This document shows, piece after piece, positions 2,500 through 52,420 of a stretch of DNA of 64,000 nucleotides. Position 1 is the first letter of the stretch. Every line of letters begins with the position of its first letter. The stretch is from Candidatus Omnitrophota bacterium. GTDB lineage: Bacteria > Omnitrophota > Gorgyraeia > Zapsychrales > Zapsychraceae. The translations under genes were made by a program, and so were the position numbers. The stretch spans positions 66,466 through 130,465 of the forward strand of contig DOGZ01000014.1 of assembly GCA_003528115.1 (NCBI GenBank), read 5' to 3'. Under the pieces are notes generated by a model that did no database searches, was not told the origin of the DNA, and saw only the letters and a list, made by a program, of their open reading frames with translations.

Positions 2500-5427
2500 A
2501 TGTTCTGGCGCATTGAAATAAAATTAAAAGAGAATATTTTTGACGCCCTCGGTGCGGGGATCCATAGATCGGTCCTGGATTTGGGTATTCGGACGATTTC
2601 CGGAGTCAAGGTTATTCAGGTGTATACCATTGACGGACGGATCAGTGAAGTACAGGTTCAAACGGCCTGCAGGGAATTGCTGGCGGATCACATCACGCAG
2701 GATTATGCCTACGCGGCCTACGACCACGCCGGGGATAAAAAAGAAAGATCTTCTTCCCCCTTTTCAGCGACGGAGAGTGCCTTCAGCATTGAAACCGCGT
2801 ATAATCCGGGAGTCATGGATCCGGTCGAACGATCGACGATCAAAGGATTAAGAGACCTCGGGATTGAACCGGTCGATGCGGTGCGGACGGCCAAGAAATA
2901 TGTTCTGCGCGGGACGGCCTCGTCTAAAGAGCTGCATATCATCACGAACAAAGTCCTCTTGAACAAGCTGATTCAGCACGTGGTCCAGGAGCCTTGTCCT
3001 CAAAAGACGTTCGCCGCTTCACCGGCGCAGCGATCCTTCAACCTGATTTATGTGGATTTAATCAAAGCCGGTGTCCGGCAATTAAAAAAAATAAGCAAGG
3101 ACGGACAGCTTTACCTCAATCTTGACGAGATGACGGTGATCCAGAAATATTTTAGAAAGCTTAAACGGAATCCGACCGATTGTGAATTGGAGACCATTGC
3201 TCAAACCTGGAGCGAGCATTGTTATCACAAGACGTTCCGCGGTAATATCCGTTATCAATACCAAGAGAACGGTCAAAAGAAAACGAAGGTGATCCGCAAT
3301 CTGTTGAAATCCACCATCTTCAAGGCCACTCAAGAAATCAATAAGTCCTGGTGTGTTTCTGTTTTCCATGATAACGCGGGCGTCATTAAATTCGATAAAG
3401 ACAGCCATGTCTGTTTTAAGGTTGAGACGCACAATCATCCTTCGGCCCTCGAGCCTTATGGCGGCGCGAATACAGGGTTGGGCGGTGTGATCCGTGATAT
3501 CCTGGGGACGGGGCTTGGGGCCAAACCGATTTGCAGTACGGATGTTTTTTGTTTTGCCCCGCCGGATTTGCCTTTTAAGGATTTGCCGGCCGGGACATTG
3601 CACCCCAAGAGGATTATGAAAGGGGTCGTCAGCGGCGTGCGGGATTACGGCAATAAAATGGGAATTCCGACGGTCAATGGGGCGATCGTTTTTGATAAGA
3701 AATTTGTGGGCAATCCGTTGGTGTATTGCGGGAATGTCGGGCTGATTCCCAAGGACAGAGTCCGAAAGAAGGTGCATCCAGGAGATTTAATCGTTGTTGC
3801 CGGAGGAAAAACGGGGCGGGATGGAATTCATGGAGCGACATTTTCTTCCGGAGAATTGACCGAGCAATCGGAGGTGATTTCTTCGGGGGCGGTACAGATA
3901 GGCGATCCTATTGAGGAAAAAAAAGTCTTGGATGTCCTCCTGCAGGCGCGGGATTTAAATCTTTATACCGCAATCACGGACTGCGGAGCCGGCGGGCTCT
4001 CCAGCGCTGTCGGGGAAATGGCCAAAGAGTTGGGCGCGCGTGTTGACCTTGAGAAGGTGCCTTTGAAGTATGAAGGCTTAAGTTATATGGAAATTTGGAT
4101 CTCGGAGTCTCAAGAGCGGATGGTGCTGTCGGTCAATCCCAAAAATATTCAGAAGTTTTTGAACGTGTTTGCCTCCGAGAATGTCGAGGCCACCGTTATT
4201 GGCGCTTTTACGGGGAGTCAACGCCTCGAACTTTTTTATCAAGGCCGTCAGGTCTGTGATCTGGCCATGGGCTTTTTGCATGACGGGATTCCGAATTTGA
4301 CCAAGGAGGCCTGTTGGACCCAACCCCGCCAACGCTCCCTCAGGATTCCGGTCACGCGGGATTTGGCAAAGAAATTACGGGAAGTTCTGTCCCATTATAA
4401 CGTGTGTTCCAAGGAATCCGTGGTACGTCAGTATGACCATGAAGTGCAGGGGGGGAGTGTCATTAAGCCTTTGAGCGGTGTCAACGCCGACGGGCCGTCT
4501 GACGCCAGTGTCGTGAGGCCGAGGCTGGATTCCCTCAAGGGGATAGCTGTTTCCAACGGCATTAATCCGCGGTTTGGGATGATCGATCCTTTCTGGATGG
4601 CCGCCTCGTGCATTGATGAGGCCGTGAGGCAGATCATTGCCGTCGGTGGAGACATGGAGAAAATTGCCATCCTCGATAATTTCTGCTGGGGGAATCCGGA
4701 TAAACCGGACCGCCTGGGCAGTCTGGTGCGCGCGGCGCAGGGGTGTTATAAAACCGCGGTCGGTTATCAGGTGCCGTTTATTTCCGGTAAAGACAGTTTG
4801 TATAATGAATATACCCAAGGCAAGAAATCCATCGCCATTCCCGGGACGTTGCTCATTTCCGCGATCGGCATTATCGAGGATGTGACCCAATGCGTGACCA
4901 TGGATTTTAAAAAAGCCGGAAATGTCATTTATGTCGTCGGTGAGACAAAGGATGAATTGGGCGGATCGATTTTTCTGGCGACATTGGATTTGATCGGATC
5001 AACGGTTCCCCGGGTGGATACGGAAAAGGGAACACGGATATTCAAGGCCTTATCCCGCGCTGCGCGCAAAGGGTTTGTCCGTTCCATCCACGACTGTTCC
5101 GAAGGAGGAATAGCGGTGGCCCTGGCGGAAATGGCTTTTAGCGGCGGCTTGGGCGTGCGTGCGCGGTTGGACCGGCTTCCTTTTTACAGCGAGGAAAAGA
5201 GAGACGACAAACTGCTCTTTTCAGAATCCAATTCCCGTTTTATTGTTGAAGTGGACCCGGATCACCAGAAGAGCTTTGAACGGATTCTCAAAGATGTTCC
5301 TTTTGGAATGATGGGGCATGTCGAGGCGACCGAGGAATTTGTTGTTTATGGTTTAAACGGCGAGATTTGTATGAAAAGTTCCCTGAGGGATCTCAAGGAA
5401 TCCTGGCAGAGTCCGCTGCGAGGGTAA
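2500..5427 (+). CDS. purL: FGAM synthase II with N-terminal PurS-like domain (purS-purL fusion)
   Basis: 975 aa; first ~80 aa resemble PurS, followed by a linker and tandem AIRS/PurM-like PurL domains. Confidence 0.85.
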   Translation: MFWRIEIKLKENIFDALGAGIHRSVLDLGIRTISGVKVIQVYTIDGRISEVQVQTACRELLADHITQDYAYAAYDHAGDKKERSSSPFSATESAFSIETAYNPGVMDPVERSTIKGLRDLGIEPVDAVRTAKKYVLRGTASSKELHIITNKVLLNKLIQHVVQEPCPQKTFAASPAQRSFNLIYVDLIKAGVRQLKKISKDGQLYLNLDEMTVIQKYFRKLKRNPTDCELETIAQTWSEHCYHKTFRGNIRYQYQENGQKKTKVIRNLLKSTIFKATQEINKSWCVSVFHDNAGVIKFDKDSHVCFKVETHNHPSALEPYGGANTGLGGVIRDILGTGLGAKPICSTDVFCFAPPDLPFKDLPAGTLHPKRIMKGVVSGVRDYGNKMGIPTVNGAIVFDKKFVGNPLVYCGNVGLIPKDRVRKKVHPGDLIVVAGGKTGRDGIHGATFSSGELTEQSEVISSGAVQIGDPIEEKKVLDVLLQARDLNLYTAITDCGAGGLSSAVGEMAKELGARVDLEKVPLKYEGLSYMEIWISESQERMVLSVNPKNIQKFLNVFASENVEATVIGAFTGSQRLELFYQGRQVCDLAMGFLHDGIPNLTKEACWTQPRQRSLRIPVTRDLAKKLREVLSHYNVCSKESVVRQYDHEVQGGSVIKPLSGVNADGPSDASVVRPRLDSLKGIAVSNGINPRFGMIDPFWMAASCIDEAVRQIIAVGGDMEKIAILDNFCWGNPDKPDRLGSLVRAAQGCYKTAVGYQVPFISGKDSLYNEYTQGKKSIAIPGTLLISAIGIIEDVTQCVTMDFKKAGNVIYVVGETKDELGGSIFLATLDLIGSTVPRVDTEKGTRIFKALSRAARKGFVRSIHDCSEGGIAVALAEMAFSGGLGVRARLDRLPFYSEEKRDDKLLFSESNSRFIVEVDPDHQKSFERILKDVPFGMMGHVEATEEFVVYGLNGEICMKSSLRDLKESWQSPLRG

Positions 5428-46396: not shown

Positions 46397-47440
46397 ATGC
46401 CTTGGACCAAAATACAAGTCGAAAAACAGGAACCTGTCTTTGACGCCAGTGAAGGGCAGAATGTCCGCAAATTAAGTTACGGCGAGGCCATCCGCGAGGC
46501 CTTGGATCAGGCCCTGGAACGCGATCCCCGGGTCTATGTGATGGGGCAGGGGATCAATGATCCCGGGGGCATGTTTGGATCTACCGACGGTCTTTATAAA
46601 AAGTACGGTCTGGAGAGGGTCTTTGATACGCCGCTTTCCGAGGAGGGCATCCTGGGGATGGCCATCGGATCAGCCATGGCCGGCTTGCGTCCGGTTTCCA
46701 TCCATAACCGGCCGGACTTTCTTTTAATGGGGATGGACCAGATCGTCAATCACGCGGCCAAATGGAGTTATATGTTTGCCGGTCAAGTTCCGATCCCTCT
46801 GGTGATCCGTGCCTGTATCGGACGCGGATGGGGATCGGCGGCCCAGCATTCGCAGGCCTTGCAGTCCCTTTTTGTTCACATCCCCGGCCTCAAAGTGGTG
46901 ATGCCCTCGACGGCTTATGACGCGAAAGGATTATTGATCACCAGTATCGCCGATAATAACCCTGTTCTGTATTTTGAACAGCGCTGGGTGTACAAACATC
47001 AAGGGTATGTGCCTGAGGATGTTTATTCGATTCCCTTCGGGGAAGGGGTCATCAAAAGAGAAGGGACGGATGTTACGATCGTTGCCGTTTCTCACATGGT
47101 GATTGAATCCCTGCGCGCCGCAGAGGAATTGGAAAAAAAAGGCATCAGCGTTGAGATTATCGATCCACGCTCTTTAAAGCCTTTGGATGATCAGTTGATC
47201 CTTAAGTCTGTGGCCAAGACCGGCCGGCTGCTGGTCTCTGATTTGAGCTGGAAGACCGGCGGGTTCAGCGCTGAAGTCATCGCGACGGTCGTCGAGAAAG
47301 GATTTCACTTTCTTAAGAAAGCCCCTGTCCGCGTGGCCTTTCCGGATATCCCCACGCCCGCGGGCCATGTGCTGGAAGAGGCCTTTTATCCGGGGGTCGA
47401 GGATATTATTGAAGCCGTCCGGAAATTGATGGGAAAATGA
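46397..47440 (+). CDS. TPP-dependent dehydrogenase E1 component beta subunit (transketolase-like)
   Basis: 347 aa E1-beta architecture; paired with the E1-alpha upstream. Confidence 0.8.
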   Translation: MPWTKIQVEKQEPVFDASEGQNVRKLSYGEAIREALDQALERDPRVYVMGQGINDPGGMFGSTDGLYKKYGLERVFDTPLSEEGILGMAIGSAMAGLRPVSIHNRPDFLLMGMDQIVNHAAKWSYMFAGQVPIPLVIRACIGRGWGSAAQHSQALQSLFVHIPGLKVVMPSTAYDAKGLLITSIADNNPVLYFEQRWVYKHQGYVPEDVYSIPFGEGVIKREGTDVTIVAVSHMVIESLRAAEELEKKGISVEIIDPRSLKPLDDQLILKSVAKTGRLLVSDLSWKTGGFSAEVIATVVEKGFHFLKKAPVRVAFPDIPTPAGHVLEEAFYPGVEDIIEAVRKLMGK

Positions 47441-48390
47441 TGCGAAGACATTCGAAGATCCTGATCGTCGGGCACGACGACATCGTGGAAAACGCGTTGG
47501 TGGAACACTTTCAGTCGAAGGGGTTCAGCCGTGTCTTTTCTTCCTCCGCGATGGCCATGGACACCACCATTCAAACATCGGTTTATGATTTCTTTTCTCA
47601 GCATCGTCCCGAGTATGTGTTTTTAGGATCCACCCGTTCGGGCGGGATTGAAGCGAATCGGACAAGGGGCGCCGAATTTATTTATCATAACCTCGAGAGC
47701 CAAAATAACATTCTTTACGCGGCGCATAAGTTTGGTGTTGAGAAATTGCTTTTCCTGGCGAGTTCCTGTGTCTACCCCAAAGATTGCCCGCAGCCGATAC
47801 GGGAAGAGTCACTTTTAACCGGGGAGCTGGAGAAGACCAGTGAGCCCTACGCCGTGGCCAAGATCGCCGGCATCAAACTCTGTCAGGCGTTTCGACGGCA
47901 ATACGGACTTAAAACGGTGGTGATGATCCCTGCGACGATTTACGGACCGGGAAGTGATATGGATATCCAGACCGCTCATGTCATCGGCGCTTTGATCGGA
48001 AAGTTTGAATCGGCGGTAAGCCATCATGAAAAACAAGTGACGGTCTGGGGGACAGGCACGCCTCGAAGAGAGTTTATCTATGTGGAGGATTTTGTTCAGG
48101 CCTGTCTTTTCTTAATGGAGCATTATGATCAGGAAGAGATCGTGAATGCGGGGTGCGGATACGATGTCACCATTAAAGAACTGTCCGAGATGGTCGCTGA
48201 GGCGGTTGGATACAAAGGAGATATCATTTTTGACAGTTCCAAACCTGATGGAACGGCCAAGAAATTATTGCATAACAGCCGGATCACAAAACTAGGCTGG
48301 CGGCCCAGGGTTTCTTTAAAAGAAGGCGTTGAGAAAACAGTCGCGTGGTTTAAAGAGGAAGTCAAACATCAGAAGCGTGAATTTTTATAA
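47437..48390 (+). CDS. fcl: GDP-L-fucose synthase (GDP-4-keto-6-deoxymannose 3,5-epimerase/4-reductase)-like, with degenerate N-terminal Rossmann motif
   Basis: Recalled resemblance to E. coli Fcl (e.g. LLFLASSCVYPK...EPYAVAKIAGIKLCQAF); ATG overlaps the E1-beta stop (ATGA). Confidence 0.75.
   Translation: MMRRHSKILIVGHDDIVENALVEHFQSKGFSRVFSSSAMAMDTTIQTSVYDFFSQHRPEYVFLGSTRSGGIEANRTRGAEFIYHNLESQNNILYAAHKFGVEKLLFLASSCVYPKDCPQPIREESLLTGELEKTSEPYAVAKIAGIKLCQAFRRQYGLKTVVMIPATIYGPGSDMDIQTAHVIGALIGKFESAVSHHEKQVTVWGTGTPRREFIYVEDFVQACLFLMEHYDQEEIVNAGCGYDVTIKELSEMVAEAVGYKGDIIFDSSKPDGTAKKLLHNSRITKLGWRPRVSLKEGVEKTVAWFKEEVKHQKREFL
48298..48378 (+). repeat. direct repeat copy 1 (native 3' end of fcl)
   Basis: ~80 bp repeated at 49654-49733 (1 mismatch) and, more diverged, at 51412-51469. 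Confidence 0.85.
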
Positions 48391-48465
48391 CAGTGTATTT
48401 TATTGGCGCTTTTTATTATTTAATCAGACTTCTTCAAGGGATTTAGAATTAAAAAAGGATGTGAA

Positions 48466-48711
48466 ATGCGTATCCCCCCTAATAAACAATTATTTTGGTT
48501 TCTTAAAGATACTGTCTCTTTAGATCTGTCTAAAACTTCAGACCTGGAGCTGTATGTACAACAGGTACTATCCAGAGGAAACCAAGAGGACGTCAAAGCC
48601 CTCTTAACTGCGGTTGATTTTGAACAATTTAAGCAAGTATTCTCAAGAATTAAACGATTTTTTCCCTGGGAGGTTCGGGCTTTTTGGGAGGATTTCATTG
48701 AAAATTATTAA
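48466..48711 (+). CDS. small hypothetical protein, candidate antitoxin of the downstream AbiEii-like gene
   Basis: 81-aa ORF whose stop overlaps the likely TTG start (~48695) of the nucleotidyltransferase gene; no recognised domain. Confidence 0.3.
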   Translation: MRIPPNKQLFWFLKDTVSLDLSKTSDLELYVQQVLSRGNQEDVKALLTAVDFEQFKQVFSRIKRFFPWEVRAFWEDFIENY

Positions 48712-49378
48712 CTCGGTTCAAGAAAAAATTCTCAAAAGTTTCGGCGACATTAAAGACAGTGACCAGTTTTATTTAACTGGAGGTACCGCCCTGTCTTATT
48801 TTTATTTAAAACATAGACAGAGCAATGATCTGGACTTTTTTACTTCTACAGAAGAAATTGTCGGCTCATTCAGCCATCAACTTGAGGATCATTTAAAAGC
48901 TAATGGATTTAAGTGTCAGCGGCAAAGGGGGCTCCATTCATTTGTAGAACTGATTGTGACATTGGATAATGAAACAACGCTAATTCATCTTGCCGTAGAT
49001 GCTGCTTTTCGCTTCGAACCAACGAAAGAATTTCCTGCTTTCCTTCATCTGAAGGTTGATAACTTAACTGATATTGCGTCAAATAAATTATTGGCACTAT
49101 TTGGAAGAGCCACTTTAAGGGATTTCATTGACGTTTATTTTCTGATTAAAAAAGAGGGATTTTCAAAAGAACAATTAATTGATACTGCCAAGAAAAAAGA
49201 CCCGGGATTTGATTTGTATTGGCTCGGCGTGGCTTTTGAACGGATTAATACCTTTGACTCAAAATCTACGGATATCTTTATGCTCGTTAAGCCTTTACCA
49301 ATCGAAGAATTAAAAACGTTTTTCAACCAATGGCGTAAAGAAATTGCCGGCGAATTAAAACCTTTTAAAGGACAATAG
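48695..49378 (+). CDS. AbiEii/AbiGii-family (DUF1814) nucleotidyltransferase, putative type IV TA/abortive-infection toxin
   Basis: Motifs LTGGTALSYFYL, HRQSNDLDFF and RDFIDVYFL match recalled DUF1814 family motifs; AT-rich relative to neighbours; the ORF is open from 48614 but the probable start is TTG at ~48695. Confidence 0.6.
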   Translation, partial: SLKIINSVQEKILKSFGDIKDSDQFYLTGGTALSYFYLKHRQSNDLDFFTSTEEIVGSFSHQLEDHLKANGFKCQRQRGLHSFVELIVTLDNETTLIHLAVDAAFRFEPTKEFPAFLHLKVDNLTDIASNKLLALFGRATLRDFIDVYFLIKKEGFSKEQLIDTAKKKDPGFDLYWLGVAFERINTFDSKSTDIFMLVKPLPIEELKTFFNQWRKEIAGELKPFKGQ

Positions 49379-49381
49379 GTC

Positions 49382-49515
49382 CCTAACTCCTAATTAGGAA
49401 TTTCTATTCTCCTCGAGAGCTCATCGATATCCATTTTGCACCCATTGGGTGAAAAAACTAGCTCGTCGAAATATCGAGGGAGCCATGATTCTCTAATTAG
49501 GAGTTGAGGATAGGT
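49382..49515. repeat. short inverted-repeat-bounded element (CTAACTCCTAATTAGGA ... TCTAATTAGGAGTTGAG)
   Basis: 15-17 bp imperfect inverted repeats around a perfect 10-bp palindrome CCTAATTAGG, spaced ~100 bp apart in non-coding DNA. Confidence 0.4.
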
Positions 49516-49614
49516 GTTCCCATAGCGGCAAATGAGGTTCAAGCAAAGGATGAGGCGAAGGACAACGCCTTGACGTTATGTCGTCAAGGTCGGCCACCGG
49601 CGTGAGGTGTGAGG

Positions 49615-49733
49615 TTGCAATTGTCGCCCGCGGGAGAGAATTGTAGTGTAAAAGGCGGCCCAGGATTTCTTTAAAAGAAGGCGTTGAGAAAACAGTCGCG
49701 TGGTTTAAAGAGGAAGTCAAACATCAGAAGCGT
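49615..49733 (+). repeat. direct repeat copy 2 (junction module plus fcl 3'-end duplicate)
   Basis: 49654-49733 is ~99% identical to 48299-48378; 49615-49658 is similar to 51367-51410. Confidence 0.85.
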
Positions 49734-50047
49734 CCTGGTGCTTATTAAAAAAGGCGGTGGCATAGCGTTTATCGACGTCCGCACAAGTAATAGAATGCAT
49801 CCCTTTGGCAAAAGGACGTCGTTATACTGACTACTAGCACATTCTATTTCTTTTACAGAAGTCAGTAATTTACTTTGCAAGAAAAGAAATAAGAAATTTT
49901 TTTCTTGAGCTGTCGTTATTATGAAAAATAAAGTCTACATTCAGACATGGGGCTGGGCGATGAACGCGTTATAGGATGAGAATGGAGAGGACAGCTAAAC
50001 CATAGTAAATAATAAGTTGTAACAGAAATCATCTTTCTCTTAAAATT

Positions 50048-51007
50048 ATGCACGACAAAAATCTTCATTTATGGCAACATGCGCACACCTTTGGACAGGA
50101 GCATAAACGCTCCGGGGAACGCCGTACGACTCTTGTTATTGTCATTACGGCTGCAATGATGGCGGTTGAGATTGTTACCGGCATCCTCTTCGGCTCTATG
50201 GCCTTACTTGCCGATGGTCTGCACATGGCCTCTCATACAATTGCCCTTTTAATCAACGTTTTTGCCTACATCTATGCCCGACGTCATTCCCATGATACGC
50301 GGTACAGTTTCGGTACGGGAAAGGTCAACGCTCTGGGAGGATTCACCGGAGCAGTCCTACTCGCCGTTTTTGCTCTTATGATGGCGTGGGGGAGTATGGA
50401 GCGCCTTATGCATCCTGTTTCTATTGCCTTTAATCAAGCTATCTTTGTGGCCATCATCGGATTGATTATTAATGGAGTTTCGGTCTTTATCCTTGGGCAC
50501 GAAGAAGATAATCATGACGCGCATGAACATTCCGACCATCACCACGATGACCGCCACGACCACAATTTAAAATCAGCCTATTTTCATGTTTTAGCCGATG
50601 CCCTGACATCCATTCTGGCGATTATCGCTCTCTTGACAGCAAAATACTTTGGCCTCATTTGGATGGATCCTCTGATGGGCATTGTCGGTGCCATTTTGGT
50701 ATGCCAATGGTCGTTGGGACTTTTACGAACAACGAGCTCCATCTTGCTTGATAGACAGGGATCGGACGAACTCAAAACAAAGATCAAGGAAAGCATTGAA
50801 AGTGTTGGTGATAGTCGGGTCGCTGACCTGCATCTCTGGGTGTTGGGTCCGAATATCTACGGTGTCATCATTTCGGTGGTTACTCATAATCCCGAATCGC
50901 CGGAGTACTATAAAAAATTACTTCCTCTTCATTTGGGCCTTGCGCACGTGACAGTTGAGGTTTATCCGTGTCCCAACAAGGAAGAAACCAAAGTGTCGAA
51001 TCGATGA
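50048..51007 (+). CDS. czcD: cation diffusion facilitator (CzcD/ZitB-type) divalent metal efflux transporter
   Basis: 6 TM helices, His-rich cytoplasmic loop HEEDNHDAHEHSDHHHDDRHDHN, C-terminal CDF domain. Confidence 0.85.
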   Translation: MHDKNLHLWQHAHTFGQEHKRSGERRTTLVIVITAAMMAVEIVTGILFGSMALLADGLHMASHTIALLINVFAYIYARRHSHDTRYSFGTGKVNALGGFTGAVLLAVFALMMAWGSMERLMHPVSIAFNQAIFVAIIGLIINGVSVFILGHEEDNHDAHEHSDHHHDDRHDHNLKSAYFHVLADALTSILAIIALLTAKYFGLIWMDPLMGIVGAILVCQWSLGLLRTTSSILLDRQGSDELKTKIKESIESVGDSRVADLHLWVLGPNIYGVIISVVTHNPESPEYYKKLLPLHLGLAHVTVEVYPCPNKEETKVSNR

Positions 51008-51015
51008 AGTAAAGA

Positions 51016-51222
51016 AACAAAAGACCGCGCGGTACGAAAACCGAGATTGTCGAAGCCGCTATCGCTTCCTTTAAAAAGGAATTCGCGATTTCCGATCTCG
51101 AAAAAGCCTGCCCGGGAGTAAGCCGGGACATGATCCGCATTGTGATGAACCGCTTAAGGAAAGAGGGGCGGTTAAAAATCCTGGGCCGTGGCCGCGATGC
51201 ACGGTGGGCAAAACTCAAATAG
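51016..51222 (+). pseudogene. gene remnant: C-terminal winged-helix-like fragment without a start codon
   Basis: Frame open from a TAA stop at ~51013 with no usable start; translation ...ISDLEKACPGVSRDMIRIVMNRLRKEGRLKILGRGRDARWAKLK resembles C-terminal wHTH tails (e.g. of Fic/AbiEi-type proteins). Confidence 0.35.
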
Positions 51223-51366
51223 ACAATAGCACATCTTAACGTGGTAATGAATGTGGTAATATCAAGGGGTGCCGGAGAAGACCGTTGCCTGCCCTGAGTG
51301 AACGAAGTATGTCGATGGGGTACAATCCTAATGAAGGAGGGTGTCCTGGGAATTCTGGGAATGAGT

Positions 51367-51469
51367 TTGCAATTGTCGCCCGCGGAAGAGAATTGCAGAG
51401 TAAAATGCGGCGAGGTTTCTGTAAAAGAAGGCGTTGAGAAAACAGTCGCGTGGTTTAAAGAGAAAGTCA
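51367..51469 (+). repeat. direct repeat copy 3 (junction module plus diverged fcl 3'-end remnant) upstream of the epimerase gene
   Basis: TTGCAATTGTCGCCCGCGG... shared with copy 2; TAAAAGAAGGCGTTGAGAAAACAGTCGCGTGGTTTAAAGAG shared with the fcl 3' end. Confidence 0.8.
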
Positions 51470-51487
51470 ACAGACAGGAGAGTGTTC

Positions 51488-52420
51488 ATGAAGATATTAG
51501 TCACCGGAGGCGCGGGTTATTTAGGCGCTGTTATCGTTCCTGTATTACTGAAAGAAGGCCACCAGGTCTCGGTGGTTGACAATTTTATGTATAATCAAAC
51601 CCCTTTGCTGGATTGCTGCCATCATCGCGACTTAACGATTATCCGGGGGGATGCCCGGGATAAATCCCTTATTGCCAGGGAATTAAAAACCGCCGATGCC
51701 ATTTTCCCGCTGGCCTGTTTGACCGGCGCGCCTTTGTGCGCGAAAGATCCCCAGGCCGCGGAATCCATCATCGTCGAGTCCATAAAGATGATTTTGAGCT
51801 TGCGGAGCCCGGCCCAGAAAATTATTTATCCAACGACGAACAGCGGTTACGGTGTCGGCGAGAAGGGGAAGCATTGTACCGAAAAGACTCCTTTAAGACC
51901 GGTCTCTGTTTACGGCCGGCTGAAGGTCAAGGCGGAAGAGGAACTATTAAATGCCAAAGGAGCGATAACCTTGCGTTTGGCGACGGCTTTTGGGGTGAGC
52001 CCCCGGATGCGGCTGGATCTTCTGGTCAACGACTTTACGTACCGGGCGGTGAATGACCGTTTTGTGGTGTTGTTTGAAGCCCATTTTAAACGGAACTATA
52101 TTCATGTGCGCGACGTGGCCAAGGCCTTTGTACATTCTTTGAATCGTTTTGACAAAATGAAGGACGAACCATATAATGTAGGCCTGAGTGACGCCAATTT
52201 AAGCAAGTTGGAACTCTGCGCGGAGATCAAGAAACACGTTTCTGAATTCTATTTTGTCGAATCGGCGATCGGTCAGGATCCTGATAAAAGAGATTACATC
52301 GTCAGCAATGAAAAAATTGAGGAAACAGGATTCAAACCCGATGTCTCTCTCTCGGAAGGTATAAGCGAGCTTGTCAAGGGATACCAAATTATCAAGAGAA
52401 ATCAATACACAAATGTCTAA
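51488..52420 (+). CDS. NAD-dependent nucleotide-sugar epimerase/dehydratase (SDR)
   Basis: MKILVTGGAGYLGAV Rossmann motif and catalytic YGRLK (YxxxK); start at ATG 51488 (the ORF upstream of it is out-of-context repeat sequence). Confidence 0.8.
   Translation: MKILVTGGAGYLGAVIVPVLLKEGHQVSVVDNFMYNQTPLLDCCHHRDLTIIRGDARDKSLIARELKTADAIFPLACLTGAPLCAKDPQAAESIIVESIKMILSLRSPAQKIIYPTTNSGYGVGEKGKHCTEKTPLRPVSVYGRLKVKAEEELLNAKGAITLRLATAFGVSPRMRLDLLVNDFTYRAVNDRFVVLFEAHFKRNYIHVRDVAKAFVHSLNRFDKMKDEPYNVGLSDANLSKLELCAEIKKHVSEFYFVESAIGQDPDKRDYIVSNEKIEETGFKPDVSLSEGISELVKGYQIIKRNQYTNV

Follow-up and report, generated by a model that had tools for sequence, protein, structure and literature searches.

The DUF1814 (AbiEii/MenT) toxins are among the most abundant of the phage-defence and toxin-antitoxin (TA) families. 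They are nucleotidyltransferases (NTases) defined by four motifs, of which I and II read hG[G/S]...DhD, III resembles KLxAaxxR and IV reads +DxxD, and mutation of motifs I-IV abolishes the toxicity of AbiEii (PMC3985639). MenT1, MenT3 and MenT4 transfer nucleotides to the 3' ends of tRNA, thereby blocking translation (PMC10435456, PMC11375011), and a pyrimidine-specific NTase activity has been described for the AbiEii of Streptococcus agalactiae in a 2026 preprint (bioRxiv 10.64898/2026.01.19.700257). Short and diverse non-AbiEi antitoxins are already established for DUF1814 toxins; MenA1, of only 68 amino acids (aa) and devoid of a DNA-binding domain, neutralises MenT1 (PMC10435456), which it both sequesters and induces to become phosphorylated on its T-x-D loop (PMC10435456, PMC11375011). 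Residue T39 of MenT1, two before D41, and S78 of MenT3 are auto-phosphorylated upon antitoxin binding (PMC11375011). Antitoxin-induced auto-phosphorylation has been described for the MenA1-MenT1, MenA3-MenT3 and AbiEi-AbiEii pairs, and current work argues that unrelated antitoxins (AbiEi/MenA3 and MenA1) all act by provoking this modification of their toxins. Here we consider a 64,000-nucleotide (nt) stretch of a Candidatus Omnitrophota bacterium (contig DOGZ01000014.1, assembly GCA_003528115.1, positions 66,466 to 130,465; hereafter the window), in which an AbiEii-type gene is preceded by an overlapping open reading frame (ORF) of 81 aa. The two genes likely form a bicistronic, horizontally mobile TA-type module composed of an AbiEii/MenT-like toxin and an 81-aa cognate antitoxin, the latter from a partner family that is previously unstudied.

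The downstream gene occupies a stop-to-stop frame of 254 aa (48614-49378, forward strand), which the TTG codon at 48698 shortens to a toxin of 226 aa. This start is assigned because the alignment with each of the 11 homologous toxins begins at residue 1, their genes all starting with TTG at +232 nt from the ATG of the small gene, because independent gene callers give the 226-aa product, and because a GGAGG Shine-Dalgarno sequence sits 6 nt 5' of the TTG. The product is an exact match to GenBank OGW96643.1, a "hypothetical protein", and it scores 62.7-63.3 bits against Pfam PF08843 (AbiEii; E ~5e-17, positions 2-185 of 238 in the hidden Markov model, HMM), where the gathering score is 22.5 bits. 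A further 22 AbiEii models of PADLOC match it as well, the best at 4.5e-13. The first-pass annotation of this DNA, made from the letters alone, had recognised an AbiEii-like nucleotidyltransferase from its GGTAL, HRxSxDLDF and RDFIDVYFL motifs, and all three are borne out (GGTAL at residues 28-32, HRQSNDLDF at 39-47 and RDFIDVYFL at 141-149). They contribute to a complete NTase signature with motifs I-II at G28-G29...D44-L-D46, motif III at K130-L-L-A-L-F-G-R137 and motif IV at R141-D-F-I-D145. In an alignment of 12 homologues (A3), G29, S42, D44, K130, R137, R141, D142 and D145 are invariant and G28 and D46 are conserved at 90% or above. Judged by the HMM and by motifs I-IV alike, the 226-aa product is a bona fide AbiEii/DUF1814 nucleotidyltransferase. 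The invariant S42 stands two residues ahead of the first catalytic Asp, in an S-x-D arrangement.

The nearest solved relative by sequence profile is PDB 4o8s/4ok0 (E 8e-5, alignment spanning motifs I-IV), an entry of low similarity to this toxin that was deposited as "Putative" and that we take to be JHP933, a DUF1814 NTase of Helicobacter pylori. No NCBIfam model matches the toxin, and no relatives of it were found on viral contigs. As for substrate, the family had been labelled GTP-specific in the first reading of this DNA, which agrees with the 2014 data (PMC3985639), whereas later work reports the transfer of pyrimidines to tRNA 3' ends (PMC10435456, bioRxiv 10.64898/2026.01.19.700257).

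Upstream, the small ORF ends in a TAA stop at 48709-48711 and thus overlaps the toxin gene by 14 nt. Its 81-aa product (GenBank OGW96644.1, exact match, "hypothetical protein") is slightly acidic, with a net charge of -1 and an isoelectric point of 5.3, whereas charge is nearly balanced in its close family. Its conservation goes far past what chance would give: 42 close homologues share 60-100% identity with it, with a length of exactly 81 aa in nearly every case, and profile searches recovered 59 cluster representatives of the family among 1.84 billion protein representatives and 99 from a set of 5.8 billion, with lengths of 77-92 aa. Relatives down to 27% identity retain the same architecture. 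Fifteen pairwise comparisons gave ratios of nonsynonymous to synonymous substitution (dN/dS) of 0.03-0.18, which shows the small ORF to be under strong purifying selection, and residues W74, E75 and D76 are invariant throughout the family alignment (A1). When supplied with the family alignment, AlphaFold2 (AF2) returned a model of high confidence (predicted local distance difference test, pLDDT, 94.3; predicted template modelling score 0.82), in which an extended N-terminal segment is packed on four helices (H24-37, H40-49, H52-65 and H68-80). The protein has no DNA-binding domain. The initial statement that it has "no recognisable fold" is not supported, since a four-helix fold is confidently predicted (pLDDT 94). 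It is true, however, that none of the solved PDB structures matches this fold specifically, and a sequence search of the family against the PDB produced only spurious helical or designed-protein matches. Pfam, NCBIfam and PADLOC hold no model that matches the 81-aa protein above threshold, and none of the three gives an AbiEi signal. It comes from a family with neither a curated model nor literature. A tblastn search of plasmids with the small protein returned no match.

These properties bear directly on the possibility, raised at the outset, that a canonical AbiEi has decayed to leave the 81-aa ORF, for it does occupy the position of abiEi and is far shorter than AbiEi. A remnant would hardly keep a length of about 81 aa across 42 close homologues, at dN/dS values of 0.03-0.18, with the same architecture down to 27% identity; nor would a confidently predicted compact fold be expected of it, or the lack of any AbiEi match in Pfam and PADLOC. 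Conservation, dN/dS and the predicted fold refute the suggestion, to which we attach next to no credence. The part of the first-pass annotation that described a short overlapping ORF standing in the place of AbiEi holds good. No AbiEi gene adjoins the pair, and none was seen by eye among the larger ORFs (at least 130-200 aa) of the window.

The association of the two genes extends well beyond this genome. Eleven further independent loci carry the small gene followed by an intact toxin orthologue of 52-78% identity at the same +232 offset, in genomes labelled Omnitrophota, Planctomycetota or Deltaproteobacteria or in unlabelled metagenome contigs. Metagenome-assembled genomes carrying the small family as a whole are labelled Omnitrophota, Planctomycetota, Deltaproteobacteria and Margulisiibacteriota. 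The TTG start of the toxin is kept in 12 of 12 loci, and the coupled, TA-like layout that had been read from a single sequence is conserved with it. The arrangement is the generic one of TA operons, with two small, co-oriented and adjacent genes, the antitoxin first, overlapping and coupled. Identities of the small protein and the toxin co-vary across loci (Spearman 0.85, for loci that are not phylogenetically independent). DNA similarity between loci starts a few bases before the ATG of the small gene and stops at the stop codon of the toxin, and the flanks differ among the loci inspected: glgA/coaE, glmS, an island of WYL, RNase T and Cas3 genes and, in the window, a polysaccharide cluster. 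Joint inheritance and movement, as is general for TA modules, are thus seen in 12 loci of patchy distribution and unrelated context.

That same mobility argues against a housekeeping role, in which an RNA-modifying NTase would act with a small specificity subunit and serve neither addiction nor defence. Such a role would suit the location of the pair among core chromosomal genes of a polysaccharide cluster, as well as its lack of an evident promoter of its own. However, the distribution is patchy, the flanks change from genome to genome with similarity confined to the two ORFs, the association is with defence islands, plasmids and mobilisable elements, toxin pseudogenes are frequent, and the window copy itself lies inside an insertion bounded by direct repeats. 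A housekeeping function is accordingly distinctly unlikely.

In the decayed loci, all of which were found via the small gene, it is the toxin that is lost. In locus L006 the toxin gene is missing from about codon 11, or about 18 nt, onward, in L020 it is split by frameshifts and in L018 it is cut to its first 52 residues; the small gene is intact in all three. The orphan small gene of L006 remains under purifying selection, with a dN/dS of 0.034 relative to that of L005. From the conserved linkage, the gene order and this persistence of the small gene in loci without an intact toxin, the 81-aa protein probably serves as the antitoxin. A reversal of roles would have a precedent in the type VII HEPN-MNT modules, in which the NTase is the antitoxin, and would here make the NTase the modifier of a small toxic protein. 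We regard this as very improbable, since every characterised DUF1814 member is a toxin, the small gene lies upstream in the usual place of an antitoxin, and an intact small gene under purifying selection with no NTase gene beside it, as in L006, would not be expected of a toxin that needs neutralisation. At that locus, the orphan small gene (3001-3246) adjoins a gene for a HicB-like antitoxin.

A second, longer family of partners was met on plasmids. A toxin-first tblastn search of plasmids gave 16 AbiEii relatives at 25-31% identity, nine of which were inspected. Six of the nine have a longer-family partner directly upstream, abutting or overlapping (Cutibacterium pTZC1, Pseudarthrobacter, Curtobacterium, Paenarthrobacter, Frondihabitans and Rhodococcus), with hmmsearch E-values of 8e-58 to 4e-11. 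In five of these six the gene encodes a product of 104-149 aa; the match in the unannotated Rhodococcus record lies only within an open frame of 403 codons. A profile of the longer family, built from 29 aligned members of the 79 cluster representatives recovered, matches that of the 81-aa family with an hhalign probability of 95.4% (E 1.9e-8) over 64 columns, taking in the C-terminal VRxxWE..F motif, and the longer partners, of about 105-150 aa, carry some 30-45 extra N-terminal residues. Three further longer-family members lie directly upstream of AbiEii and beside relaxase, MobC and integrase genes. By profile comparison, the 81-aa protein is the minimal (77-92-aa) form of one AbiEii-partner superfamily. 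NCBIfam has no model for either partner family. Among the remaining plasmid toxins, those of Rhizobium and Campylobacter are paired with proteins of about 110 aa that are unrelated to this family, and for that of Bacillus there is only a VbhA-like gene of 76 aa, 430 nt upstream. The mixture of short partners among these toxins implies that short non-AbiEi partners are the rule in this branch of DUF1814.

On pTZC1 (locus L141), a resistance plasmid of Cutibacterium acnes, the partner-AbiEii pair adjoins erm(50). There and in L146, L147 and L148 the pair is followed by a small gene for a "recombinase family protein", which suggests that pair and recombinase gene form a three-gene mobile or stabilisation unit on actinobacterial plasmids.

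Several observations weigh against the assignment of the pair as toxin and cognate antitoxin. A single-sequence structure model of the toxin reached a pLDDT of only 45 and is unusable. The Omnitrophota-type loci were ascertained via the small protein, which places toxin-only loci outside the sample and biases the argument from asymmetric decay; the only toxin-first sample is the more distant plasmid set. RefSeq names the longer partners either "hypothetical protein" or "transcriptional regulator", and the latter name could hint at another role. In locus L014, a member in which the small domain is fused to an N-terminal DNA-binding domain of the MazE/AbrB antitoxin type (P0097, 2585-3109) is followed by a HEAT-repeat gene and not by AbiEii. 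Finally, a degenerate member in L019 (P0100; 106-1230) precedes genes of 106 and 183 aa, and the 183-aa product, in the place of AbiEii, weakly resembles a DUF6036 nucleotidyltransferase; on this locus the small domain may also partner other NTase families.

Two of these points could be taken to mean that the small protein acts mainly in transcriptional regulation, or as an accessory or sensor subunit of the NTase, and that control of the toxin lies elsewhere: RefSeq applies the name "transcriptional regulator" to homologous proteins of 105-118 aa, and P0097 bears its MazE/AbrB domain. No Pfam or NCBIfam model backs that name for the longer partners, and we consider a mainly regulatory or accessory role unlikely. 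Other members of the small family depart from the simple pair in different ways. One (P0076, 158 aa) is a tandem duplication of the small domain. Locus L015 (2081-3898), and likewise L016, holds two short-antitoxin/AbiEii modules in tandem, the first with an Rv0078B(MenA1)-like 74-aa gene and a 168-aa AbiEii and the second with a 92-aa member of the small family and a 221-aa AbiEii. The tandem modules adjoin WYL, RNase T-like and Cas3 genes in what looks like a defence island. Both the tandem with a MenA1-like pair and the antitoxin-type domain of P0097 speak in favour of an antitoxin role for the small family.

How a TA module of this kind would operate can be outlined from its characterised relatives. 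By homology, the toxin would add nucleotides to the 3'-CCA ends of tRNA and so arrest translation. The two genes are expected to be translationally coupled, given that the GGAGG of the toxin lies in the last codons of the small gene and its conserved TTG is a weak start; coupling and TTG start together would keep the antitoxin in excess and the toxin sub-stoichiometric. By analogy, neutralisation would most likely proceed through direct binding of the 81-aa protein to the NTase. Such binding may drive the toxin to phosphorylate itself on Ser42, the invariant serine of the S-x-D catalytic loop, in the manner of type VII systems, whether alone or in addition to sequestration. Auto-phosphorylation is plausible at this residue because Ser42 holds the S/T-x-D position that is modified in MenT1 (T39) and MenT3 (S78).

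A more ambitious proposal is that the 81-aa protein and its relatives of about 105-150 aa constitute a third antitoxin class for these toxins, fairly widespread and with a structure of its own, that acts via auto-phosphorylation of the S-x-D serine. This is possible, but on present evidence we would doubt it sooner than adopt it. As envisaged, members of the class would share a compact four-helix fold and possess neither kinase motifs nor a DNA-binding domain. The "new minimal antitoxin class" of the first-pass annotation overstated the case, as the 68-aa MenA1 is known (PMC10435456) and longer relatives exist. If the proposal is true, a third unrelated, small and well-folded partner family would allow the universality of antitoxin-induced auto-phosphorylation, as the control mechanism of this NTase superfamily, to be tested independently.

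The features of the locus are collected in the table below. The pair is preceded by an NAD-epimerase gene (coding sequence, CDS, 47437-48390) and followed by a gene for a CDF (cation diffusion facilitator) transporter.

Table. Coordinates of the two genes and of the surrounding repeats, palindromes and hairpin, numbered from the first nucleotide of the window.
Feature	Position	Strand	Basis or remark
Candidate antitoxin gene, 81 aa	48466..48711	+	ORF, homologues, dN/dS, AF2, linkage to AbiEii
Ribosome-binding site AGGA, 6 nt 5' of the ATG of the small ORF	48456..48459	+	Read from sequence
Toxin gene (AbiEii/DUF1814, MenT-like nucleotidyltransferase, 226 aa)	48698..49378	+	TTG start, PF08843, PADLOC AbiEii
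Shine-Dalgarno sequence GGAGG of the toxin gene	48687..48691	+	Sequence; within the invariant W-E-D codons of the small ORF
Direct-repeat copy A, 80 nt, at 3' end of epimerase CDS	48299..48378	+	Repeat comparison; left boundary of TA insertion
Long imperfect rod-like hairpin	49376..49515	+	-52.7 kcal/mol, z = -5.3; 18-nt arms 49380-49397 and 49493-49510
Imperfect palindrome (28 nt) and repeat copy B	49616-49643 and 49654-49733	+	B and A share 99% identity; right boundary of TA insertion
Second palindrome and repeat copy C	51368-51397 and 51404-51483	+	C 80% identical to A; abuts start of next epimerase gene

Copy A of the direct repeat leaves out the last 12 nt of the epimerase CDS, stop codon included, and copies B and C are each preceded by the same imperfect palindrome, GCAATTGTCGC-CCGCGG-GAGAGAATTGT, in an 11-6-11 layout. 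The repeats delimit two intervals, the first of which contains the TA pair and the 140-nt hairpin and the second the CDF cation-efflux gene (50048-51007), whose product has a His-rich loop, together with a winged helix-turn-helix (wHTH) gene fragment. This organisation is consistent with small non-autonomous elements having been inserted site-specifically on two successive occasions, each bringing a replacement 3' end for the target gene. More speculatively, the module may be carried by a mini-cassette that lacks a recombinase and is inserted at the 3' end of a gene, beside a dif-like 11-6-11 palindrome. No recombinase was seen by eye among the window ORFs of at least 130-200 aa. An empty insertion site was sought, and all six independent assemblies that carry the epimerase protein share the same layout. 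Metagenomes scanned for a 17-mer from the palindrome were uninformative, the first 119 matches all being due to chance and devoid of flank similarity.

The hairpin, which comes directly after the toxin stop, is absent from the homologous TA loci, and Rfam gave no match in the whole window or in a permissive scan of 48300-51600; a terminator, an mRNA stabiliser and a small inserted element are all possibilities. The wHTH-like fragment (51001-51222) has no start, and its sequence reads ...RPRGTKTEIVEAAIASFKKEFAISDLEKACPGVSRDMIRIVMNRLRKEGRLKILGRGRDARWAKLK and ...GRGRDARWAKLK, each up to a stop. It had been suggested to be a displaced C-terminus of AbiEi. This idea fails, as the fragment has no AbiEi match and the wHTH of AbiEi is N-terminal (PMC10435456, PMC3985639). 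Only sub-threshold matches to DsrD and DIP2311-like proteins were obtained, and the fragment is a C-terminal remnant of some other gene.

Comparison with described families places the small protein apart from those that have a name. DUF6922 (PF21956) shows weak similarity over the first two helices, with E below 0.1 in 11 of 38 family members; the window protein reaches 14.7 bits and the best member 23.6, against a gathering score of 27, and the family cannot be counted within DUF6922. DUF6922 itself has no mention in the literature and its function is uncharacterised. The longer partners of actinobacterial plasmids, such as that of pTZC1, are the demonstrable relatives, being homologous over the C-terminal ~64 residues and having the same place before AbiEii, although the plasmid toxins are only 25-31% identical to that of the window and these longer partners are themselves uncharacterised.

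With the AbiE systems of S. agalactiae and Lactococcus, the module has in common a toxin of PF08843/DUF1814 with motifs I-IV and a bicistronic organisation on mobile DNA, in which the antitoxin gene precedes and overlaps that of the toxin. The antitoxins differ. AbiEi proteins have about 200-300 aa, belong to COG5340 and combine an N-terminal wHTH with a C-terminal neutralising domain, whereas the partner described here has 81 aa, four predicted helices and nothing in its sequence that detectably resembles AbiEi. Toxin and partner genes overlap by 14 nt here, with a TTG start, in contrast to the 4 nt of S. agalactiae (PMC3985639). As its upstream gene has no AbiEi match, the pair does not belong to AbiE proper. 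Here lies an annotation gap, for AbiE and TA finders that demand an AbiEi miss such pairs and hence under-call them.

The best functional analogue is instead MenAT1 of Mycobacterium tuberculosis (MenA1/Rv0078B-MenT1). The toxins of the two systems are distant, and the toxin profile found no MenT structure. Homology of the antitoxins was tried and rejected, with an hhalign probability of 0.2% against an Rv0078B-like protein and no PF18993 match in 38 family members. Their structures differ too, MenA1 being a partly disordered two-helix "V" (PMC10435456) and the 81-aa protein a predicted compact four-helix domain. What the two systems share is a DUF1814 toxin preceded by the gene of a very short antitoxin, and the T-x-D loop of MenT1 has its counterpart in the invariant S-x-D of the toxin described here.

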